DNA of 64,000 nt from an uncultured delta proteobacterium (lineage in GTDB: Bacteria > Myxococcota_A > Polyangia > Polyangiales > Polyangiaceae), in assembly GCA_963696385.1 (NCBI GenBank), contig CAVOKF010000006.1, positions 320,001-384,000 of the forward strand, read 5' to 3'. How positions within the stretch are numbered: position 1 is the stretch's first letter; every line of letters begins with the position of its first letter. Made by a program: the position numbers and the translations under genes. The notes below the pieces were generated by a model. That model saw only the letters and a program-made list of their open reading frames with translations. It searched no databases and had not been told where the DNA came from. Below, piece after piece: positions 15,443-24,903 of this stretch.

Positions 15443-15976
15443 TCAAAGAGACGCTGCTGGCGGCGGCGACGCACTCGAGGCCGCATCGGCCCCCGTAGCT
15501 TGGGCGAGGATCTCGGCAGCCGTCTGAAACGCTTGCCTCACCGCGCTCGACTGCGTCCCCGTCCCGTCGTCGTCCGGTCGGTACGATCGAGGGGCGATGC
15601 TGGCTCCGCTCGGACCCGTGCTTTGGATCCCCGCGCGTGGCGAGCCCGGGGCGCGGGATCCGGTGGCCCGGAGCGGTTGAAGACGGCCACTTTGCGCAGC
15701 GAGGGTGAACTGGGAGGCGAGGTGCGTCAGATTCTGCGCGTCGACGCCGCCGGCCTGGCTAGCCGCTTGCGTAAAGCTCGCAGCTACCTGTTGAGCCACG
15801 GTGTTGAAGCGAGTTGGTTCCTGCTGCGAGAGTTGCTGCATCTCGTTCAGGAATTGCGCGGGCTGCGAGATCGACGTGGTGATGGCGGGCGCCTTGGGAG
15901 GCGGCGGCAAGGTCTTCGGAGCGGGGAGTCCGGACGGCTCCCACACCTTCTTCTGTTCAATGCTGTTGACGCTCAT
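15443..15976 (-). CDS. Uncharacterised Gln/Ala/Ser-rich helical protein, paralog 1
   Basis: AGGAG RBS; core 42/67 identical to 24279..24824; no Cys and no Sec signal. Confidence 0.8.
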   Translation of the reverse strand: MSVNSIEQKKVWEPSGLPAPKTLPPPPKAPAITTSISQPAQFLNEMQQLSQQEPTRFNTVAQQVAASFTQAASQAGGVDAQNLTHLASQFTLAAQSGRLQPLRATGSRAPGSPRAGIQSTGPSGASIAPRSYRPDDDGTGTQSSAVRQAFQTAAEILAQATGADAASSASPPPAASL

Positions 15977-16036
15977 CGAGATGGCTCCTGGTTCGGCTTC
16001 GAGCCATGGCGCGAAGTGCGCCCCAGATCGCTGGGA

Positions 16037-16063
16037 TCAACGGCGGAATCGTGAGAACCTTCA
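16037..16063 (-). promoter_or_regulatory. sigma28 (FliA)-like promoter TGAAG-N14-GCCGTTGA
   Basis: Fits the T(A/C)AAG-N14-GCCGATA pattern; the same architecture precedes the paralog at 24877..24903. Confidence 0.6.
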
Positions 16064-16275
16064 GCGATTCCGTTCTACCGTCGCTTCGCGAATGCGCGTC
16101 CCGCGAATTCGGCCGGATTGTTTGTTGAGCCGATTGTGCCGCGTCGGCCCACGCGCCAGAAGCGCGGGGGTAGGCGCGCTTCCGCGATTCCGTTCGCGAG
16201 CATGCGAGGGACCGTTCGCGGGCCTGCGAGAAATCGTTCACAACGTTCGATAGGGTGCAATGGCGTGGCCGGTCC

Positions 16276-16369
16276 GTGCGACGGCCTTGCCGGTCAGGTG
16301 CGACGGCCTTGCCGGTCAGGTGCGACGGCCTTGCCGGTCAGGTGCGACGGCCTTGCCGGTCAGGTGCGA
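16276..16369. repeat. Tandem repeat, 4 perfect copies of 22 bp GTGCGACGGCCTTGCCGGTCAG plus partial copies
   Basis: Read directly; no spacers. Confidence 0.95.
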
Positions 16370-16642
16370 TGGTTGGCGGTAGGGTGAAATGTCGCTTTTC
16401 GGGTGAAACCGAAGATCTCGCGCAGGGCAATCAAAGCCAATCGTTCGCAACCGGCGATTGGAGGGTCAAAAGATATTGAGCCGATCGTCCTCGCGGGCGC
16501 GCGTTTCGCGTTTCACTTTCCCAGTTTCCTCTTGTCCGCCCATTGCCGTTCCCGTACCCTGTCGTTCCTGCCGCGTCGAAAGCGGCCATGGGGCACTTTT
16601 GGCGGGGGCGCGACAACGGCACGCGCCCTGGAGGGCTTAGGC

Positions 16643-18961
16643 ATGCGTTCATTCACTTCCTGGCAGGGCTGGTTGACCGCGAGCACCCTGGTGGGCTGCA
16701 CGCTCGGCGCGAACGTCGCCGGATGCGGCGGCAATTCGGAGGGCTCGGGCCCGGCGGAAGACTCCGGCTCCACGAGTTCTTCGTCGTCCACGAGTTCCTC
16801 GTCGTCCACGAGTTCCTCGTCGTCCACGAGTTCTTCGTCGTCCACGAGTTCCTCGTCGTCCACCAGTTCCTCGTCGTCCACGAGTTCCTCGTCGAGCTCC
16901 AGCAGCGGTTCCAACGGGGACTCCGGCGCGGACACCGGCTCGACGGCGGACGCCGGAGTCGATTCGGCGGCCGACGGCAGCGTGGGGGAGGCCGATTCGG
17001 GGCCCGACTCGACGGTGGGCGATTCGGGGCCCGACTCCACGGTGGGCACCGGAGGCGATTCGGGGCCCGACTCGAGCGCAGACGCCGCGGGGAGGGACGC
17101 GGGGCCCGACTCGAGCGCGGACGCCGGCGACGGTGCCGTACCCTGCACCAACGGAAGTGCTTGCTCGATCAACAACCTCAACGGTGTCTGCGTCGCCGGT
17201 GCTTGCGCGCCGTGCGACAGCGCCGACGGTGGCGCGACGAGCCTCGGCTCCGACACGGCCTGTACCACGGCCTACGGGGGCGCCACGCGACCCTACGTGT
17301 GCATCGCTGGTTCGTGTGCGGAGGGCAACTGCACGGCGGACTCGGCCTGTGCCGCTCCGACGCCCACGTGCGGCTTCGCGACTCCGAACTTCTGCGGTGG
17401 GTGCACGAGCGACGGGCAGTGCTCAAGCTCACAGATTTGCGTCACGGCCACCGGGTCCACGCAAGGCTCCTGTGTCTTGGCGAGTGCCGGGGGCTGCACC
17501 ACCAACCAGAGCAATGCGGTCTGTCCGGACAACGCCGCCGACGAATGCTGCGCCGGAACGTGCAGCCCCGGCAACTGCTGCATCGCCGCGGGCGTCCCCA
17601 CGGGGTGCACGGGCCAGGCAAGCGTGACCTGCAAGCCGGACGCACCCAGTGAGCAGAACGGCGGCGGCATCTGCACCGCGTGTGCTGCCGTGACCGGCGC
17701 GGCCCCGGTCTACTACGTCGATCCCGTTCATGGCAGCGACGTGCAGGGCACGGGCAACAATTCCGTATCCGAGGCCTGCGCCTTCCAGACCGTGACGCGA
17801 GCGCTCCAGGTCATCGGAACGACTCCGCTGGCGAACACGACGATTGACATCGTCGGCGGAACGACGGACGCGGGCGTCGTCACGGTCACAGGCGTCGCGG
17901 CCGGAACACCCGGCCCGGGGCAGGAGCTCTTCCCGCTCACTCTTCGCGCGAGCATCACCGTCACGAACTCGGCAGGCCCGGTCACCATCGAGGTCCCGGC
18001 GAGAGCGGGCGGAGGTCCAACGACCGGCTTCGTGCTCACAGGCGCTTCGTCGGCCATCGTCGGTGGTTCGGCCGGCGCACTGGTCGTCGATGGACAGGCG
18101 CAGGCGGCCTCGGTCGGGGTCCTCGTTCAGACCCCGGGAGCTTCCTTGACCGACGTGACCGTCCAGAACTTCGCCACCGTGGACGTCGAAGTGAATGGAG
18201 CCGCAACGGCAAGCGCCCTCGCGGTGGGCTCCGGCGTTCAGTGCCTGGGCGCCGGGGACGGCTTGCTCGTCACGGGCCCCGGCGCGAGCGCCACGGTCAC
18301 TCCCGGGGCAGGCGGTCATCCCATCCTCTTCAACGGGAACACGGCGCACGGGATCCGCGTCATCGGCGGCGGCATTTTGACCGTGACCGGTACCGTGGGC
18401 GCCACTCCGCCGTCGTCCAGTACGGTCGTTGCCAATGGCAACGGAATCGCGGGCATCTGGATCCAGACGGCATCGGCCACGCAGAGCGTGATCAGCGGCG
18501 TCGTTTCGACGGGAAGCACGGCGGGCAACGGCATCCGGATCATCCCGGGATCGAACGTGCAAGTTCGAAACAGTTGGCTGCTCGGCAACTCGCATGGCAA
18601 CGGCATCGACATCGAGAACAACGGTGGGGGGGTCGGGACGGTCAACACCATCGACCTCGGGACCGGAACCACGGGGGCCGCCGCCGGGGGCAACGTGCTT
18701 CAGTCCGTGTCGGGAGCCAACCCCAACGCCGGCGCCGGAATCTGCTTGACGCTTCCGGGTGCCGACACACCGGTCACCTTGATGGCGGAGGGCAACATCT
18801 TCCAAAATGAGGTGAACTGCGGAACGACGGCGGCTGCGCTGGTCACGAGGCCTGGCCTCGGATGCGCGGGCGGGGCCGATGTCGGCGGGACGATCGTGGC
18901 TACCGCAGCCGCCGCGGGCACGGGGGATAAAATCGACGTGACGATGTGCACGGTGCCCTAG
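16643..18961 (+). CDS. Large lipoprotein: Ser-rich linker, Cys-rich region and right-handed beta-helix (pectin lyase-fold) domain
   Basis: GGAGG RBS before ATG 16643; VAGC lipobox; YYVDPVHGSD...AFQTVTRAL; repeated GNxxxGIxI rungs. Confidence 0.8.
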   Translation: MRSFTSWQGWLTASTLVGCTLGANVAGCGGNSEGSGPAEDSGSTSSSSSTSSSSSTSSSSSTSSSSSTSSSSSTSSSSSTSSSSSSSSGSNGDSGADTGSTADAGVDSAADGSVGEADSGPDSTVGDSGPDSTVGTGGDSGPDSSADAAGRDAGPDSSADAGDGAVPCTNGSACSINNLNGVCVAGACAPCDSADGGATSLGSDTACTTAYGGATRPYVCIAGSCAEGNCTADSACAAPTPTCGFATPNFCGGCTSDGQCSSSQICVTATGSTQGSCVLASAGGCTTNQSNAVCPDNAADECCAGTCSPGNCCIAAGVPTGCTGQASVTCKPDAPSEQNGGGICTACAAVTGAAPVYYVDPVHGSDVQGTGNNSVSEACAFQTVTRALQVIGTTPLANTTIDIVGGTTDAGVVTVTGVAAGTPGPGQELFPLTLRASITVTNSAGPVTIEVPARAGGGPTTGFVLTGASSAIVGGSAGALVVDGQAQAASVGVLVQTPGASLTDVTVQNFATVDVEVNGAATASALAVGSGVQCLGAGDGLLVTGPGASATVTPGAGGHPILFNGNTAHGIRVIGGGILTVTGTVGATPPSSSTVVANGNGIAGIWIQTASATQSVISGVVSTGSTAGNGIRIIPGSNVQVRNSWLLGNSHGNGIDIENNGGGVGTVNTIDLGTGTTGAAAGGNVLQSVSGANPNAGAGICLTLPGADTPVTLMAEGNIFQNEVNCGTTAAALVTRPGLGCAGGADVGGTIVATAAAAGTGDKIDVTMCTVP
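16769..16894 (+). repeat. Intragenic 18 bp x7 repeat encoding STSSSS
   Basis: tccacgagttc(c/t)tcgtcg x7. Confidence 0.95.
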
Positions 18962-19129
18962 TCTGAAGTTCAGCCTAGTGGGTGAGGTCCGTCCCGCGGA
19001 TCCATCCGCGCTGCCCGCGCATCGCGAACCGAGCACTCGGGGCCCATTGCGCAAGAACCATTGTACTTATGGATTCGCGCGACCTGCGGAATGGACCCTA
19101 GACGCCGGCGGAGCTGCCGCGCCGCTTCG

Positions 19130-20629
19130 TCACGGCGCGGCCGGGTTCCAGTATCCGCCGTTCATCATGATGAGCGAAAGAGCCGTCCACGACTCGGTAT
19201 AGTAGGTGGTGCCGTCGAGTTCGGTCAGCGTCGCGACGCCCTTGTACGCGGCGTCGCGAAGGACCGAGAACGAGGCGTCGCTCATGGCGCCGACGCCCGC
19301 GGGGCCGACGAATGCCGCCGACTGATGGACGGTAGGGTCTGTGGGGTCGGGCGTGCCGTCGAGTGCGTATCCGTCCACGATGTTCGACGCCCCGACCTGC
19401 TGATAGAAGGCGCTGATCTTCGCGAGATACGATTTGGCGCGTGGTTCGCCGTTCCAGCATAGGTCCTGGCCGATTCGAAACGGCGTTCGGCAGGAATCGA
19501 GTTGGTAGTTGGTCGGCAGGCTCGCGTTGGGCGCCTGGGGAACTCCCGCGGGAGTGGACCACGCGGGGACGAGACCGTTCGTTGCATTCCCGTTTGCGGC
19601 ATTGAGCGACGCGGCCAATATCGTGTACGAGCTCTCGACGACTTCGTTCCAGTTGGCTTGCTGTCCTGTTGCCTGACCGAACAGGCGATAGTATGCGGGC
19701 GCAAAATACGAGATGTTGATGACCGAGGCGCCGCCGAATTGATCCCCGGGCGCGAGCGCGTACGCTCGCGTGGAATCGACCTCGAATTGCCAAATGGCGT
19801 TGATTTGCGTGACCGCGATGTCGTGGTACGTGCTCGCGAGCGACCCTTGGCCGCCCCAGCGATGGTCGGCCCACAGCAGCGCGAAGGCCATGTCCTCGTC
19901 CGCGTCCGTCGCGGCTCCGGTCCCACCCGCCGTCGGCCCGCTGCCCGTCGGATTGATCTGCCAGTTCATCAGGCCGTTGCCGTCGAGAAAGAGCTGTTCG
20001 TAGCCCCAGAGGGCGTCGAACGTCGGCTGATCGTTCATCGCGACGGCGAGGATCATTCCGTAGGCGGTGCCTTCGGAGTTCGAGGTGTCGACGGCGTTGG
20101 GGGAGTTCGGCCGGAGCACGCGAAGAAACCCGTGCGCGCCGTCCGACGTCAGCAAATCGGATTTCCACTTGGCGTAGGCCGCCTGGGCGTCGGACCACGA
20201 TGCCCCCGCGGGTGCGGTGCAATTGCCGAGGGCCTGCGCCGGATCCGCGGGCGCTGGCGCGGCGCCATCGTCTGCGGTCGCGTCGGGGGGCGTTGCCGCG
20301 GCGTCGCTGCCGCCGCCGCGTGGGGACCCGTCGGGAGCCGAGCCCTTGGGGATCGATTCGCTCGAGGTCGGAGCTGTCGACATGCCGGGGGTCGTGCCCG
20401 CGTCGATCGTCGCTCCGGCGGGCGATGTCGCCCCGCCGCTTGGGATCGCGCCCTGGGTCCCGCCGGCATCCGTGCCGGCAGGGTCATCGAGGGAAGGGGA
20501 TCCGGTGGGCGATGCCGTGCTGACACGACAGCCGGTGGCGGCGCACGGGGTCAGCGCGAATGAAAGGGACACCACGAGTACAGGGTGAAGTTCGCGCAGG
20601 TCCCCTCCAAGGCCGTGCCTCATGGCCAA
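19130..20629 (-). CDS. Glycoside hydrolase family 8 (endoglucanase/chitosanase-like), probably lipid-anchored
   Basis: SEGTAYGM catalytic Glu motif, ATDADEDMAFALL, NISYFAP and C-terminal YY; Pro/Ala/Asp linker. Confidence 0.92.
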   Translation of the reverse strand: MAMRHGLGGDLRELHPVLVVSLSFALTPCAATGCRVSTASPTGSPSLDDPAGTDAGGTQGAIPSGGATSPAGATIDAGTTPGMSTAPTSSESIPKGSAPDGSPRGGGSDAAATPPDATADDGAAPAPADPAQALGNCTAPAGASWSDAQAAYAKWKSDLLTSDGAHGFLRVLRPNSPNAVDTSNSEGTAYGMILAVAMNDQPTFDALWGYEQLFLDGNGLMNWQINPTGSGPTAGGTGAATDADEDMAFALLWADHRWGGQGSLASTYHDIAVTQINAIWQFEVDSTRAYALAPGDQFGGASVINISYFAPAYYRLFGQATGQQANWNEVVESSYTILAASLNAANGNATNGLVPAWSTPAGVPQAPNASLPTNYQLDSCRTPFRIGQDLCWNGEPRAKSYLAKISAFYQQVGASNIVDGYALDGTPDPTDPTVHQSAAFVGPAGVGAMSDASFSVLRDAAYKGVATLTELDGTTYYTESWTALSLIMMNGGYWNPAAP

Positions 20630-20960
20630 AACGCTAGCGCGTTCGGCCCCCGTGTCTTGCTTCTCTTCTCGCTTATCGGTTGTGCCGCAAGGCTAGGAAC
20701 GGAGCTCGCCCAGCTTCACCTACGTTTTGCGAGTGGAAACGTTACTCGTGGCTGTAATCCGAGTGAATTGCCGTTCAGCGAACCGATTGCGTCACGAACG
20801 ATTGAAGCGATTGCGGTTCACTTTTCGATCCCGCCGCGGCCGGAACGCGACCCGAGCGACCGTGCCGATTGCGCCGTACGCTCGGCCTTCGGGTGTGCGG
20901 GTGGGTGACCCGTCGGCGCCGGCTCTTTCGTGCCGACCGAAGCGGGGCTAGATCAGCGGC

Positions 20961-22721
20961 ATGACCGACGCGAAGCAGGATATCCTGGACATGCTTCGCG
21001 ATCTGGCCAAGCTCACGTTGCTCGATGAGGGGGATCCGCAGTCGTTTCGTGTGCGCGCGTACGAGAGTGCGGCGCAGGCCATCGAGGGCCAATCGGTCCG
21101 ACTCGAGAAACTGAGCGCGAAGGATCTCCAGTCGATCGACGGCATCGGCAAGAGCACCGCCGACAAGATTCGCGAACTTCTCGAGACGGGACGGGTCGAA
21201 AAGCTCGACGCCTTGCGGGCGAAGTATCCGCCGAGCGTCGTCGCCCTGCTGGACATTCAGGGGCTCGGGCCGAAGGCGGTCAAGCGGATGCGCGCCGAGC
21301 TCGGGGTGCAATCGGTCGACGATCTGCGCAACGCGGTGGCCGGTCGAAAGCTCCGCGAGCTCAAGGGATTCGGCCAAAAGTCCGAGGACAAGATCGCGCA
21401 CGCGCTCGATCGGCTCGCCGAACAGGGTTCGGTGGGCAGGACGCCCATCTCGGTCGCGCTGCCTTTGGCGACGCGGGTCGTGTCGCGTCTGCTCGAAGTT
21501 CCGGGCGTCACCCACGCGTCGTTCTGCGGATCGCTGCGTCGCTTCGCGGAGACCGTCGGCGACGTCGACATCGTCGTCGCAACGACGGACGCCGAGGCCG
21601 CGATCGAGGCCCTCGTGGGCATGAACCTCGTCGACCACGTACGGGTCCGAGGAGAAGCCAAGACGAGCGTCGTCACCCATCGAGGAACGCAGATTGACGT
21701 TCGTGTCGTCGCGCAACGGCAGCTCGGCGCCGCGCAGCTCTACTTCACGGGTTCGAAAGGGCACAACATCAAGCTACGCCAACGCGCGATGGCCCGCGGA
21801 TGGACGCTCAACGAATACGCGCTCTCCGATTCGGAAAGTGGCCGTCCGATCGCCGGCGAAACGGAGGAGCAGATCTACGCCGCTCTCGGCGTCGCGTGGA
21901 TTCCGCCGGTCCTCAGGGAAGACGCCGGCGAGATCGAGGCCGCGGAGACGGGGGCGCTCCCCCTTCCGATCGGCGAGGTCCACGGCGACTTCCACTTGCA
22001 CACCTCGCTTTCCGGCGATGCCCGGTCGAGCCTCGAGGAAATGGTCGCTGCCGCGAAGGCGCGCGGATATCGCGTGCTGGCGGTGACGGACCACGCCGAG
22101 GGGACGGTCGCCGGCGTCGGCCGCGAAGCGTTTCTCGATCAACGCGCGAAGGTTCGAGCGCTGCAGGAACAGCTCGGCGACTCGCTTCGGCTCCTGCACG
22201 GCGTCGAGCTCAACATCGGTCCCGAGGGACAGCTCGATTACGACCCGGACTTTCGGCGGGGGTTCGACTGGTGCCTGGCGTCCGTCCACGATCACTTCGA
22301 CCTCGATCGGTCCGCCCAAACGAAGCGCATCGTGATGGCGATGCAGGATCCGGCGGTGCGGATGATCGGTCACTTGTCGGCGCGGATGATTGGCGGTCGT
22401 CCGCCGATCGATTTGGATCTCGACGCCATCTTCACGGCCGCAGAGGCCACGGGCACGGCGCTCGAAGTCAATGGCGCCCTTCCGCGGCTCGACCTGTCGG
22501 TCGACGCCCTGCGCCGCGCTCGCGAACGGCGGGTCGTGCTCGTTCTGACGAGCGACGCCCATGAGGCCGTCGAGCTCGGCCGCGTGCGCTTCGCCGCGCT
22601 GAACGCCGAGCGAGCCTGGATGGCGCCGGATCGCTTTGCGAATGCTTGGCCTGCAGAACGGCTGCTCGCGTGGGTGGCCGACAAGGCACCCTTGGCCGCC
22701 GCTTCGTACAGCGCCCCGTGA
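20961..22721 (+). CDS. polX: DNA polymerase X with PHP 3'-5' exonuclease domain
   Basis: HhH motifs GIGK and GLGPK; GSLRR...GDVD; YFTGSK; PHP HLHT, TDH, GVE and SDAH motifs. Confidence 0.95.
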   Translation: MTDAKQDILDMLRDLAKLTLLDEGDPQSFRVRAYESAAQAIEGQSVRLEKLSAKDLQSIDGIGKSTADKIRELLETGRVEKLDALRAKYPPSVVALLDIQGLGPKAVKRMRAELGVQSVDDLRNAVAGRKLRELKGFGQKSEDKIAHALDRLAEQGSVGRTPISVALPLATRVVSRLLEVPGVTHASFCGSLRRFAETVGDVDIVVATTDAEAAIEALVGMNLVDHVRVRGEAKTSVVTHRGTQIDVRVVAQRQLGAAQLYFTGSKGHNIKLRQRAMARGWTLNEYALSDSESGRPIAGETEEQIYAALGVAWIPPVLREDAGEIEAAETGALPLPIGEVHGDFHLHTSLSGDARSSLEEMVAAAKARGYRVLAVTDHAEGTVAGVGREAFLDQRAKVRALQEQLGDSLRLLHGVELNIGPEGQLDYDPDFRRGFDWCLASVHDHFDLDRSAQTKRIVMAMQDPAVRMIGHLSARMIGGRPPIDLDLDAIFTAAEATGTALEVNGALPRLDLSVDALRRARERRVVLVLTSDAHEAVELGRVRFAALNAERAWMAPDRFANAWPAERLLAWVADKAPLAAASYSAP

Positions 22722-22750
22722 TCCCTTTGCTCTGGGCCGGTGTACTTAGC
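22706..22750. repeat. Dispersed hairpin/MITE-end-like element, family B copy 2
   Basis: Homologous to 11083..11128; contains the stop codons of both convergent genes. Confidence 0.7.
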
Positions 22751-23633
22751 CATCGCCCATTCGAAAGCGGGTCGGTCGGTCGCGCAAGTCCGGCGCCGCG
22801 ACCCGCACGCACCACGCCTCGAACGGCCCCCGTGGTACGCCCGTCCACGCGAGATCCTCGAATCGCTCGGGCAGCGGTACATCGTCCATCAGCGTCGCGA
22901 GCTTGCGGTAAAGAAGCGCCTGGGGCATCTGCTCGCGCAGGATCGCAACGAGCCGGTCGGCCTGCCGGATGGGGGTCGGCCACCTCTTCGGGTCGAGCGG
23001 AATGCCCTCCAGGTGGCCGAATGCGCGCAGCAGCGTTGCGGCGGTCTTGTCGCCGAATCCGGCGAGACCCGGAATGCCGTCTGCCGAGTCTCCCACGAGA
23101 GCGAGCCAGTCCGGGACGCTGTCGGGACGGATGCCGCGCTTCTGCCAAAGGGCCGCCTCGTCGATGACGAGTCCACGAATTCGGTCCACCATGACGACTC
23201 GCTCGCCCCGAATGGCCTGCCCGAGGTCCTTGTCGGGCGTCAGCAGCCGGACTTGCGCGACGCGCCCGGACCATCGTGCCGCGGCCGTCGCCATGGCGTC
23301 GTCGGCTTCGTACCGGTCCATCGACCAGACGACCATTCCGAGCGATCGCGCGGCGTCCTCGACGAGGTCGAACTGTTCGAGCAGCTCCGAGGGCACGCCC
23401 TCGTCCGTCTTGTAGCCGTCGAACCAGTCGTTGCGAACCGACCGGATCGGGTTGTCGAACGCGACGGCGATGTGCGACACGGCTTCGTCCTCGGCCTGCA
23501 GAAGGTCGAGCATCGAGCGTGCGAACCCCACGGTCGCCTTGAGGTCACGGCCTTCGTGAACGTGGCTGGGCCTGCGAGAGAAGTGCGCGCGAAAGAGCTC
23601 GAACGTCCCGTCCACCACGTGAAGTCTCGGCAT
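22746..23633 (-). CDS. Stand-alone 5'-3' exonuclease/flap endonuclease
   Basis: VVDG, YEADD, DKDL and LVGDSADGIPGLAGFGDKTA (H3TH) motifs. Confidence 0.93.
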   Translation of the reverse strand: MPRLHVVDGTFELFRAHFSRRPSHVHEGRDLKATVGFARSMLDLLQAEDEAVSHIAVAFDNPIRSVRNDWFDGYKTDEGVPSELLEQFDLVEDAARSLGMVVWSMDRYEADDAMATAAARWSGRVAQVRLLTPDKDLGQAIRGERVVMVDRIRGLVIDEAALWQKRGIRPDSVPDWLALVGDSADGIPGLAGFGDKTAATLLRAFGHLEGIPLDPKRWPTPIRQADRLVAILREQMPQALLYRKLATLMDDVPLPERFEDLAWTGVPRGPFEAWCVRVAAPDLRDRPTRFRMGDG

Positions 23634-23654
23634 GCGTCGGGGCAGAGCGTCGCA

Positions 23655-24122
23655 TCATCCTTCGCGACCGGCCAGGCGGACTCTCAGCTCGCGGACCCAG
23701 TGATCGATGCGGTTCATCGCCACCTCGGGGGGCCACAGGGCGACGTCTTCCACGTCCCAATATTCGACGCGGTCGGTCCAGATCGGAAAGTGCTCGAGGA
23801 GCATCGGCCGATGCTCCTGCCGGCTCATGGCCACGATGTGCGCCGCCCCCGTAAGGTCGGCGGGCTCGACGAGGCGCGGCAATCGCAGGGGCTCGTCGAG
23901 GTCGATTCCGCGCGCTTGCAGGCCGCCTCGAGCGTGCGGCGAAATGGGTCCGACATTGCCTCGACTGTGGACCCATGAGATCCCGCGCGACTGCGCGCGC
24001 CAGCCGGTCGGCTGTCGCGTCTCGAGGTGCTGCCAAAGCTCCTCGGCGAAGCGACTCCGGTAGTAGTTGCCGGTGCACAGAAAAAGAAGATGCCGTTCGG
24101 GGGCTGCTTGGACGGGCGGCAT
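23655..24122 (-). CDS. Low-molecular-weight phosphatase/ArsC-fold protein
   Basis: LFLCTGNYYRS P-loop (CX5R). Confidence 0.85.
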   Translation of the reverse strand: MPPVQAAPERHLLFLCTGNYYRSRFAEELWQHLETRQPTGWRAQSRGISWVHSRGNVGPISPHARGGLQARGIDLDEPLRLPRLVEPADLTGAAHIVAMSRQEHRPMLLEHFPIWTDRVEYWDVEDVALWPPEVAMNRIDHWVRELRVRLAGREG

Positions 24123-24278
24123 CGAAGATCGCCTCCACGATTACATCGCAAGAGCCGTTCCCGCGAAGGGAGATTGTGCCGCGCCCGGGGTGGCGTTCGC
24201 CCGAACTTCGAAGCGGCCCATTTCGGGCGAGCGCGTGCCGCCATCGCGGCGGTTCGGGTTAGGTGGGCGACGAGGAAG

Positions 24279-24824
24279 TCAGGTCGAGGTGCCCTGTGTC
24301 GCTTGATGGAGAATGTCCAGGGCGTTCGCGAACGCCTGCTGCACCTGGCTGGACTGCGCGCTCGATCCGCCGCCGTGGCCGTGGTGATGGTGGTGATGGG
24401 CTCCGCTGCTTGCGCCGGCCTGACCCGCGGCTTGCACCCCTTGAGCACCCAGAGCGGCTTGGACCGTCTGGGACGCCTGGGCCGATTGGGCCGATTGGGC
24501 AGGCTGAAGACTGCCGGTTTGCGCCGCCTGGTTGAACGTGTTGGCGAGGGCGGTCAGAAACTGCGCTTGAGTGCCGCTCGCCTGGTCCGCGGCATTCTGG
24601 AAGCTGGTCGCGACCTGGGCTGCAACCGCCTTGAATTCCGTCGGGTTCGTTTGCGACAGCTGCTGCATCTGGCTGAGAAACGAGGCCGGCGTCGAGATCG
24701 ACGCGGTTGCCGCGGATTGGGTGGAGGGCGGGACGACGCTCGGCGTCGTGTTGGATGAGCTGAGCCCGTCGATGCTGGTGGTGGGCGCGTACGCGAGGCT
24801 ACCGCTAAGACTGTTGATATTCAT
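24279..24824 (-). CDS. Uncharacterised Gln/Ala/Ser-rich helical protein with His6 tract, paralog 2
   Basis: AGGAG RBS before ATG 24824 (MNINSLSGS); HHHHHHGH tract; paralog of 15443..15976. Confidence 0.82.
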   Translation of the reverse strand: MNINSLSGSLAYAPTTSIDGLSSSNTTPSVVPPSTQSAATASISTPASFLSQMQQLSQTNPTEFKAVAAQVATSFQNAADQASGTQAQFLTALANTFNQAAQTGSLQPAQSAQSAQASQTVQAALGAQGVQAAGQAGASSGAHHHHHHGHGGGSSAQSSQVQQAFANALDILHQATQGTST

Positions 24825-24876
24825 TTCGCTGCTCCTGGGGGGCGCCATCACTCCACGCTTGGGTCACCCGATAGGA

Positions 24877-24903
24877 CCAACGGCGTAGACCCCCGTCTCT
24901 TGA
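24877..24903 (-). promoter_or_regulatory. sigma28 (FliA)-like promoter TCAAG-N14-GCCGTTGG
   Basis: Boxes and 14-nt spacing shared with 16037..16063, with an unrelated spacer sequence. Confidence 0.62.

Follow-up and report, generated by a model that had tools for sequence, protein, structure and literature searches.

The present analysis concerns two paralogous genes, here called gene A and gene B, in a stretch of 64,000 nucleotides (nt) from an uncultured delta proteobacterium of the Polyangiaceae (contig CAVOKF010000006.1, positions 320,001 to 384,000; the whole stretch is referred to as the window), and both genes are, as judged from comparative evidence, very probably members of the sigma-28 (FliA) regulon of late flagellar genes. 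The fuller statement, that they are FliA-dependent late genes whose product is exported and acts outside the cytoplasm, is given a probability of about 0.45. According to this proposal, A and B would be two monocistronic late-class genes of the flagellar regulon, RNA polymerase carrying FliA would start their transcription at T(C/G)AAG-N14-GCCGTTG, and they would be expressed once FliA has been freed from the anti-sigma factor FlgM, a timing that is proposed because the promoter type is the same as that of flgM and fliC. The product is predicted to be a small helical bundle free of cysteine (Cys), preceded by a disordered N-terminal stretch of about 40 residues; most members of the family also have a linker rich in histidine (His). 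Like FlgM, it would itself be a late substrate of flagellar type III export and would act outside the cytoplasm, where the conserved His tract would suit the binding of metal. The coordinates of the genes, their promoter sites and their ribosome-binding sites are collected in Table 1.

Table 1. Genes A and B with their predicted promoters and ribosome-binding sites (positions within the window; ORF, open reading frame; aa, amino acids).
Feature	Position	Strand	Basis
Gene A, 177 aa	15443-15976	minus	ORF list and family profile match, E 1.4e-47
AGGAG ribosome-binding site, gene A	15985..15989	minus	Read from sequence; 8 nt 5' of ATG
Sigma-28-type promoter of A: -35 TGAAG, N14, -10 GCCGTTGA	16037..16063	minus	Motif TGAAG-N14-GCCGTTG
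Gene B, 181 aa from the chosen ATG	24279-24824	minus	ORF list and family alignments
AGGAG ribosome-binding site, gene B	24832..24836	minus	Read from sequence; 7 nt 5' of ATG
Sigma-28-type promoter of B: -35 TCAAG, N14, -10 GCCGTTGG	24877..24903	minus	Motif TCAAG-N14-GCCGTTG

The preliminary description of this DNA had reported T(G/C)AAG-N14-GCCGTTG upstream of both genes, and the motif is indeed present at each of them, at 16063..16038 (A) and 24903..24878 (B) on the minus strand. The distance from the motif to the ATG was measured as 61 nt (A) and 53 nt (B), the value quoted there being 52-60 nt. The spacers of the two sites are unrelated, with the half-sites and the distance between them retained. 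The -35 element of site B reads TTCAAG, as at flgM and fliC, the promoters of which are TTCAAG-N14-GCCGTTCC, located 45 nt upstream of the ATG of flgM, and TTCAAG-N14-GTCGTTTC, respectively. The same architecture is given for FliA promoters of E. coli in excerpts of a published account, such as TCAAG-N14-GCCGATAA at flgKL (PMC4183435). Across the 6.94-Mb genome, the strict motif T(G/C)AAG-N14-GCCGTTG occurs seven times on both strands, GCCGTTG by itself occurs 2266 times, and the pattern T[CG]AAG-N14-G[CT]CGTT has 33 matches. Six of these 33 matches are in uncalled DNA at most 200 nt upstream of an ORF on the same strand, belonging to fliC, flgM, A, B, a gene for a small CxxC protein and one further ORF. 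When the spacer between these half-sites was set to 11, 12, 13, 15, 16 or 17, each length gave 0-1 gene-proximal intergenic matches, the gene calls used for this intergenic filter being crude (based on GC content at third codon positions, covering 77% of the genome). The motif at A and B is considered to be more than chance because the strict form is rare genome-wide and the enrichment is tied to the N14 spacing. No motif of the extracytoplasmic function (ECF) sigma type, AAC-N16/17-CGT, was detected within 200 nt of either gene on the upstream side, and GAAC-N16/17-CGT was found in 0/42 upstream regions of homologs. A sigma-70-like promoter was not found upstream of A or B either. A separate observation is a pair of small CxxC paralogs of 85 and 115 aa, located at G000:C3:666496-666753 (plus strand) and G000:C1:287026-287373 (minus strand), both of which lack a Pfam family and lie behind TCAAG-N14-GCCGTT(C/G), making them further candidates for the same regulon.

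The comparison was extended to other genomes with a matrix trained on flagellin genes. Upstream regions of 29 flagellin genes were taken from other genomes of the order, the sites were located by a loose pattern, and a two-block matrix was built from 22 of the 29 promoters, with the genome studied not among them. Left out were L043, L054, L055 and L066, in which the site was unclear or doubtful, and L062, L069 and L072 as near-duplicates of sequences that were retained; L054 also resembles L059. The flagellin-promoter consensus of the order reads cTCAAG-N14/15-nCCG(A/T)T. In the background of the genome studied, 4.1%, 1.45% and 0.45% of 111,896 windows of 160 nt reach 10, 12 and 14 bits, respectively. 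Among 3492 gene upstream regions, site B ranks 9 with 14.7 bits and the flgM site ranks 18 with 13.5 bits. As a positive control outside the training set, 23/26 flgM genes of the order reached at least 10 bits.

The motif was also observed upstream of homologs, as the preliminary description had proposed to look for, in both sets of loci, in several phyla and with agreement of an unbiased k-mer count. Homologs from the whole-genome search reached at least 10 bits at 11/21 loci and at least 12 bits at 9/21 loci, in a set in which the start codon of L022 was mis-picked. For homologs in named genomes, 26/42 upstream regions reached at least 10 bits vs 113/2778 control windows of the same loci, with 19/42 vs 33/2778 at 12 bits or more and 11/42 vs 12/2778 at 14 bits or more, and the upstream window held the best score of the whole locus in 16/42 loci. 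The two sets partly overlap, L023 and L086 being the same contig. The sites begin 47-114 nt before the start codon, and records titled Capsulimonadaceae and Armatimonadales hold family copies with GCCGATAT, GCCGATAA or CCCGATAA. When 5- and 6-mers were counted in the region from -130 to -20 of the 42 loci and in 4052 control windows, CCGTT came first, being present in 55% of the upstream regions vs 9.9% of the controls (p ~1e-12), and CTAAA, TAAAG, TCAAG, CCGAT, GCCGTT, CCGATA and CTGAAG were enriched as well, the last of which, the variant at gene A, was found in 8/42 homolog upstream regions vs 3% of controls. Clustering at 70% identity reduces the 42 proteins to 35 groups, and the site is present in 20/35 of them. 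It is very unlikely that the shared motif is a product of chance, or a remnant of paralogy devoid of promoter function: short degenerate motifs are common, as the count of GCCGTTG illustrates, and the order-wide matrix gives site A a low score, but the unrelated spacers between kept half-sites at a kept distance, the spacing-specific enrichment, and the conservation of the motif in other phyla and at homologs with as little as ~30% protein identity (background 4.1%) all speak against this reading.

The genome encodes the sigma factor and the apparatus that such a promoter would call for, and the FliA and flagellar export genes that the preliminary description had suggested searching for were both found. 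The model TIGR02479 (FliA_WhiG) recognized FliA at C8:480181-480822, where the score of 215.2 bits exceeds the cut-off of 189.6 and the gene is flanked by the flhA region and flgB; TIGR02479 has 13 matches in this genome, of which this one is above the cut-off and 12 are below it. A complete flagellar cluster occupies C8:446-496 kb (Pfam on 46 ORFs), comprising the export gate (FliH, FliI, FliO, FliP, FliQ, FliR, FlhB, FlhA); rings and rod (FlgI, FlgH, FlgA, FlgG, FlgB/C-like rod proteins); motor and switch (MotA, FlbD, FliE, FliF, FliG, FliL, FliM, FliN); hook (a FliK-like protein, FlgE); filament (a FlgJ-like glucosaminidase, FliC, FliD, FliS); late and regulatory proteins (FliW, FlgL, FlgK, FlgM); and glycosylation proteins (an MptE-like, Maf-type protein and sugar-nucleotide genes including NeuB). 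The earlier premise of a lineage usually considered non-flagellated fails because the genome encodes a flagellum, and flagellin was detected in 78/201 sampled genomes of the order, 171/401 of the phylum and 22/39 of the window's own family. Model myxobacteria are non-flagellated, and from the frequency of flagellin in these samples, flagella seem to be common among their uncultured relatives. Flagellar assembly genes in uncultured Myxococcota were noted in a 2021 preprint, in the part of it that was available (10.1101/2021.07.06.451402).

Several further features of the flagellar genes were observed. On the 3' side of fliC-fliD-fliS (G000:C8:485811-494386), an MptE-like gene is found with Polysacc_synt_2, cytidylyltransferase, WbqC and NeuB genes (nonulosonic-acid-type sugar), and the combination of MptE-like and nonulosonic-acid-type sugar genes suggests that the flagellin of this genome is glycosylated. 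Outside the cluster, FHIPEP (FlhA-like) and FliP are each encoded once more, at G000:C8:111356-113422 and G000:C5:23952-24551, respectively, and the extra FHIPEP copy is placed among PP2C, TPR and D-Ala-D-Ala ligase genes, with no obvious type III cluster there. In related genomes, the 5' leaders of the flagellin genes (loci L044-L072) have in common a conserved ribosome-binding-site sequence, CTCA(A/C)GGA(G/A)GAG, which in many cases follows a hairpin containing GGA. This leader element, together with FliW in the cluster, recalls CsrA-FliW control, which acts on the translation of flagellin.

A profile search over 1.84 billion sequences recovered 1582 representatives of the family at E <=0.001 and 984 at E <=1e-10, each representative being a cluster at 50% identity. 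Members with a sigma-28 promoter were found in records titled Polyangiaceae/Myxococcales, Capsulimonadaceae/Chthonomonadaceae/Armatimonadales, Bryobacterales, Gemmataceae and Pseudomonadota, and the closest relatives of gene B, with up to 86% identity, are in records of metagenome-assembled genomes titled Polyangiaceae bacterium. Carriers of the family were nearly always flagellin-bearing: the family is present in 16/201 genomes of the order sample, with flagellin in 14/16 carriers vs 64/185 non-carriers, and in 12/401 genomes of the phylum sample, with flagellin in 11/12 carriers vs 160/389 non-carriers, six carriers being common to both samples; flagellin was also found in 5/5 carriers from other phyla. 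Carrier G076, one of the two in which no flagellin was found, is 89% complete and in 830 contigs, and it has a gene for FlgM. Neighbouring genes of the homologs vary from locus to locus. No paper on this family was found by word searches, as distinct from sequence searches, and for that reason the negative is weak evidence for an undescribed family.

These distributions also bear on the possibility that another sigma factor of the FliA/group-3 type, untied to flagella, reads the motif, so that the link to flagella is an indirect one. The 13 TIGR02479 matches in the genome, only one of them above the cut-off, would allow for such a factor, as would carrier G043, which has a FliA-like sigma (152.6 bits) and in which no flagellin or FlgM was found. 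Against it, motif and spacing are the same at fliC and flgM of this genome, at the 23/26 flgM genes and at the flagellin genes of the order, copies in other phyla carry the canonical GCCGATAA, flagellin accompanies the family in nearly all carriers of each sample as counted above, and a gene for FlgM was found in the incomplete genome G076. Such an indirect link is regarded as improbable.

Membership of A and B in the FliA regulon being thus favoured, the nature of their product was considered. The two proteins share 54/108 identities in BLASTP (E 2e-26), and the paralogy that had been described, with 42 identities in a common core of 67 aa, was exact on recount; the C-terminal helix QSSxVxQAFxxAxxILxQAT is common to the two proteins and recurs in the alignment of the family. 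The sequences likewise bear out that both A and B contain zero Cys residues and that one of them, B, has HHHHHH, the product of gene A being without the His tract and carrying a Pro/Arg-rich linker in its place. For gene B, the ATG was chosen that gives the conserved N-terminus of the family, the longest ORF beginning with GTG at 24851. A and B are the only family copies in the genome, and neither matched Pfam or NCBIfam above the cut-off. In the AlphaFold2 model of gene B, the mean predicted local distance difference test (pLDDT) score is 63.8, with ~88-92 for the core and less than 50 for the ends and the linker. Residues 1-42 and 110-153 are disordered in the model, helices at 45-59, 61-81, 85-103 and 157-180 form a bundle, and the Gln/Ala/Gly linker includes HHHHHHGH. 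An alignment of 95 sequences keeps the N-terminal M-x-I, the core (S-x-PG-x-L-x-S-x-LQQL-x-Q-x-DP-x-KFK-x-V, followed by further helices), an HxHHHHG tract and the C-terminal amphipathic helix. The His tract is present in most family members, gene A being unusual in lacking it, and metal binding by this tract is plausible only because it is conserved.

Some relatives carry 3 to 5 copies of the unit, joined by Pro-rich linkers, and 17 matched stretches were counted in a relative of 1903 aa; among multi-repeat relatives with a complete N-terminus, no hydrophobic, signal-like N-terminal stretch was evident by eye. Searches for known relatives gave little. No consistent known family was recovered from Pfam with 50 distant or long relatives, or with the 42 alignment members at E up to 10; the only matches were a weak one to CTD11 in 21/42 alignment members and artefacts of the repeats in a protein of 1903 aa. 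Among PDB sequences, a profile search retrieved for the most part His-tagged chains and no credible relative, Foldseek against PDB gave nothing at E <=0.001, and ESM Atlas returned unnamed clusters only. The wide VIA-align comparison had a best Z of 6.5 (apolipophorin), with ferritin-like and other generic bundles besides, and a match to a flagellar chaperone (Z 5.4) was set aside as within the noise for helical bundles. Longer, fused forms of the family were searched for and none was found, for which that search is weak evidence.

The N-terminus is the part of the protein that bears most on export. A start of the form M-x-[IV]-[NDST] was counted by eye in 35/43 family loci and in 19/26 FlgM proteins of the order, and occurs in 51/2253 (2.3%) of crude ATG-started ORF calls. 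FlgM is a late substrate that is exported by the flagellar apparatus, and export of the family is plausible because its N-terminus resembles that of FlgM. The disorder of residues 1-42 in the model of gene B is suggestive of an N-terminal export region. When the late-class promoter and the fibre-like repeat relatives are considered along with the disorder of the N-terminus and the absence of Cys, export would be the most likely fate of the product, and passage of the family protein through the flagellar apparatus is given slightly below even odds. A product that stays in the cytoplasm as a regulator, a chaperone or a metal-binding accessory of motility, encoded by genes that are no less FliA-dependent and late, is also a serious possibility, with the odds somewhat against it. 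All of the promoter and co-occurrence evidence fits it equally well, the core is confidently predicted as a compact helical bundle, no export chaperone or flagellar gene is adjacent, and flxA and modA of E. coli are described, in the available part of the source, as FliA-dependent with no obvious role in flagellar synthesis (PMC4183435). It fits less readily with the 40-residue disordered N-terminus, rich in Ser/Thr/Asn, that begins like that of FlgM, and with the long multi-repeat relatives, which have Pro-rich linkers and look like extracellular fibres, but neither of these two points is decisive.

A number of observations weigh against the proposal of FliA-dependent late genes with an exported product. 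Site A scores only 7.6 bits with the flagellin-trained matrix, a value reached or exceeded by 468/3492 gene upstream regions, and this low score arises because none of the training sites has the G that TGAAG carries as its second letter. The upstream regions of 16/42 homologs remain below 10 bits, and the compared genomes are kin, so that the counts overstate independence. Carrier G043 is 93% complete with no flagellin or FlgM found, and its FliA-like sigma is below the cut-off and 41% identical to the FliA of the genome studied. In the order sample, 64/78 flagellin-bearing genomes are without the family, which is therefore an accessory one. Among neighbouring ORFs at the 21 homolog loci, 0/43 are flagellar, and there is no adjacent chaperone gene. 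Many proteins of the sigma-28 regulon are cytoplasmic. A last point comes from expression data: assembled metatranscriptome contigs, which cannot show transcription starts, cover 24524-24756 inside gene B in two runs (at least 99% identity), and contigs from a ~92% identical relative cover gene A, one of which runs from inside gene A through the predicted promoter to 16070 plus 16 letters; stretches of the two loci that no contig covers are uninformative. If it represents RNA, this contig misfits a start near 16030, and it could be due to DNA carry-over or read-through.

With these points set against the evidence above, the earlier suggestion of a late-class secreted protein family stands in part. 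Regulation by sigma-28 is supported by the presence of FliA, by the motif shared with flgM and fliC and by its conservation, and the suggestion of a non-flagellated lineage and that of kinship with filament proteins or harpins are abandoned. The three findings that the preliminary description had named as adverse to its own reading were all looked for, and in their place FliA and the export apparatus were present, the motif was kept at homologs and no ECF-type motif was seen.

Several observations concern the DNA next to gene A. At 16254-16369 of the window, 5.3 tandem copies of a unit of 22 nt, GGTGCGACGGCCTTGCCGGTCA, occupy part of the intergenic region between the gene A promoter and a divergent large gene starting at 16403. 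This gene, an ORF of 852 aa at 16403-18961 on the plus strand, contains an 18-nt tandem repeat in 7 copies (16769-16894) that encodes a Ser/Thr-rich stretch, followed by Cys-rich and Gly/Thr/Val-rich repeats, and its predicted product has the appearance of a secreted surface protein.

As a regulatory tier, the FliA regulon is textbook knowledge, but to our knowledge little is known of its accessory members outside model bacteria. Through the present analysis, a family of ~1600 clusters with no Pfam or NCBIfam model gains a context in the late flagellar programme, and possibly in export; the lineage-specific sigma-28 consensus cTCAAG-N14/15-nCCG(A/T)T becomes usable for annotation; and further evidence is gained for flagella being encoded by many uncultured relatives of the model myxobacteria, which are themselves non-flagellated. 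A bolder extension, which is rather unlikely, is that the family constitutes a new and widespread non-structural cargo of the flagellum, His-rich, made after completion of the hook-basal body, exported by a FlgM-like signal and charged with an extracellular task. If this were true, the cargo would serve bacteria of soil and peat, from at least four phyla, for example in metal capture, in sensing or as a second secreted checkpoint regulator, and the flagellum would be a conserved secretion device in free-living environmental bacteria and not only in pathogens.

Among known systems, harpins (HrpZ, PF04877) and flagellins (PF00669/PF00700) resemble the family in being Cys-free, rich in Gln/Gly/Ser and helical, with no Sec signal. 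Harpins and flagellins leave the cell through type III systems, and harpin genes use HrpL-type promoters and not sigma-28 ones. The proposed kinship with filament proteins or harpins found no support, as A and B are without a Pfam match, FliC and FlgL are the only proteins of the genome that match the flagellin model, and one repeat-type relative has a sub-threshold Harpin match (23.0 bits against a cut-off of 25.1). Homology to FlxA of E. coli (PF14282) was likewise rejected, the model missing A and B in a search of the whole genome at E up to 10 and hhalign giving a probability of 1.1%; flxA is in a cryptic prophage of E. coli, whereas the present family is chromosomal and occurs in several phyla. 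The model of YjfB (PF14070) matches other places in the genome (E up to 10), not A or B. FlgM (PF04316) shares with the family a small size, the absence of Cys, a sigma-28-type promoter, a disordered N-terminal part followed by helices and the M-x-[IV]-[NDST] start, whereas the family differs in its roughly twofold length, in its arrangement of four helices, in its His tract and in occurring alongside a true FlgM. Identity with FlgM was rejected: PF04316 matched none of the 42 members (E up to 10), hhalign gave a probability of 0.85% to the FlgM of this genome, and the single PF04316 match of the genome lies elsewhere. The exported proteins of Campylobacter jejuni offer a parallel by analogy only: they serve host invasion and, according to the accessible part of the report, are non-flagellar proteins that leave the cell by way of the flagellar type III system under the direction of their N-terminal sequence (PMC2764114), which is the route proposed here for the products of A and B.

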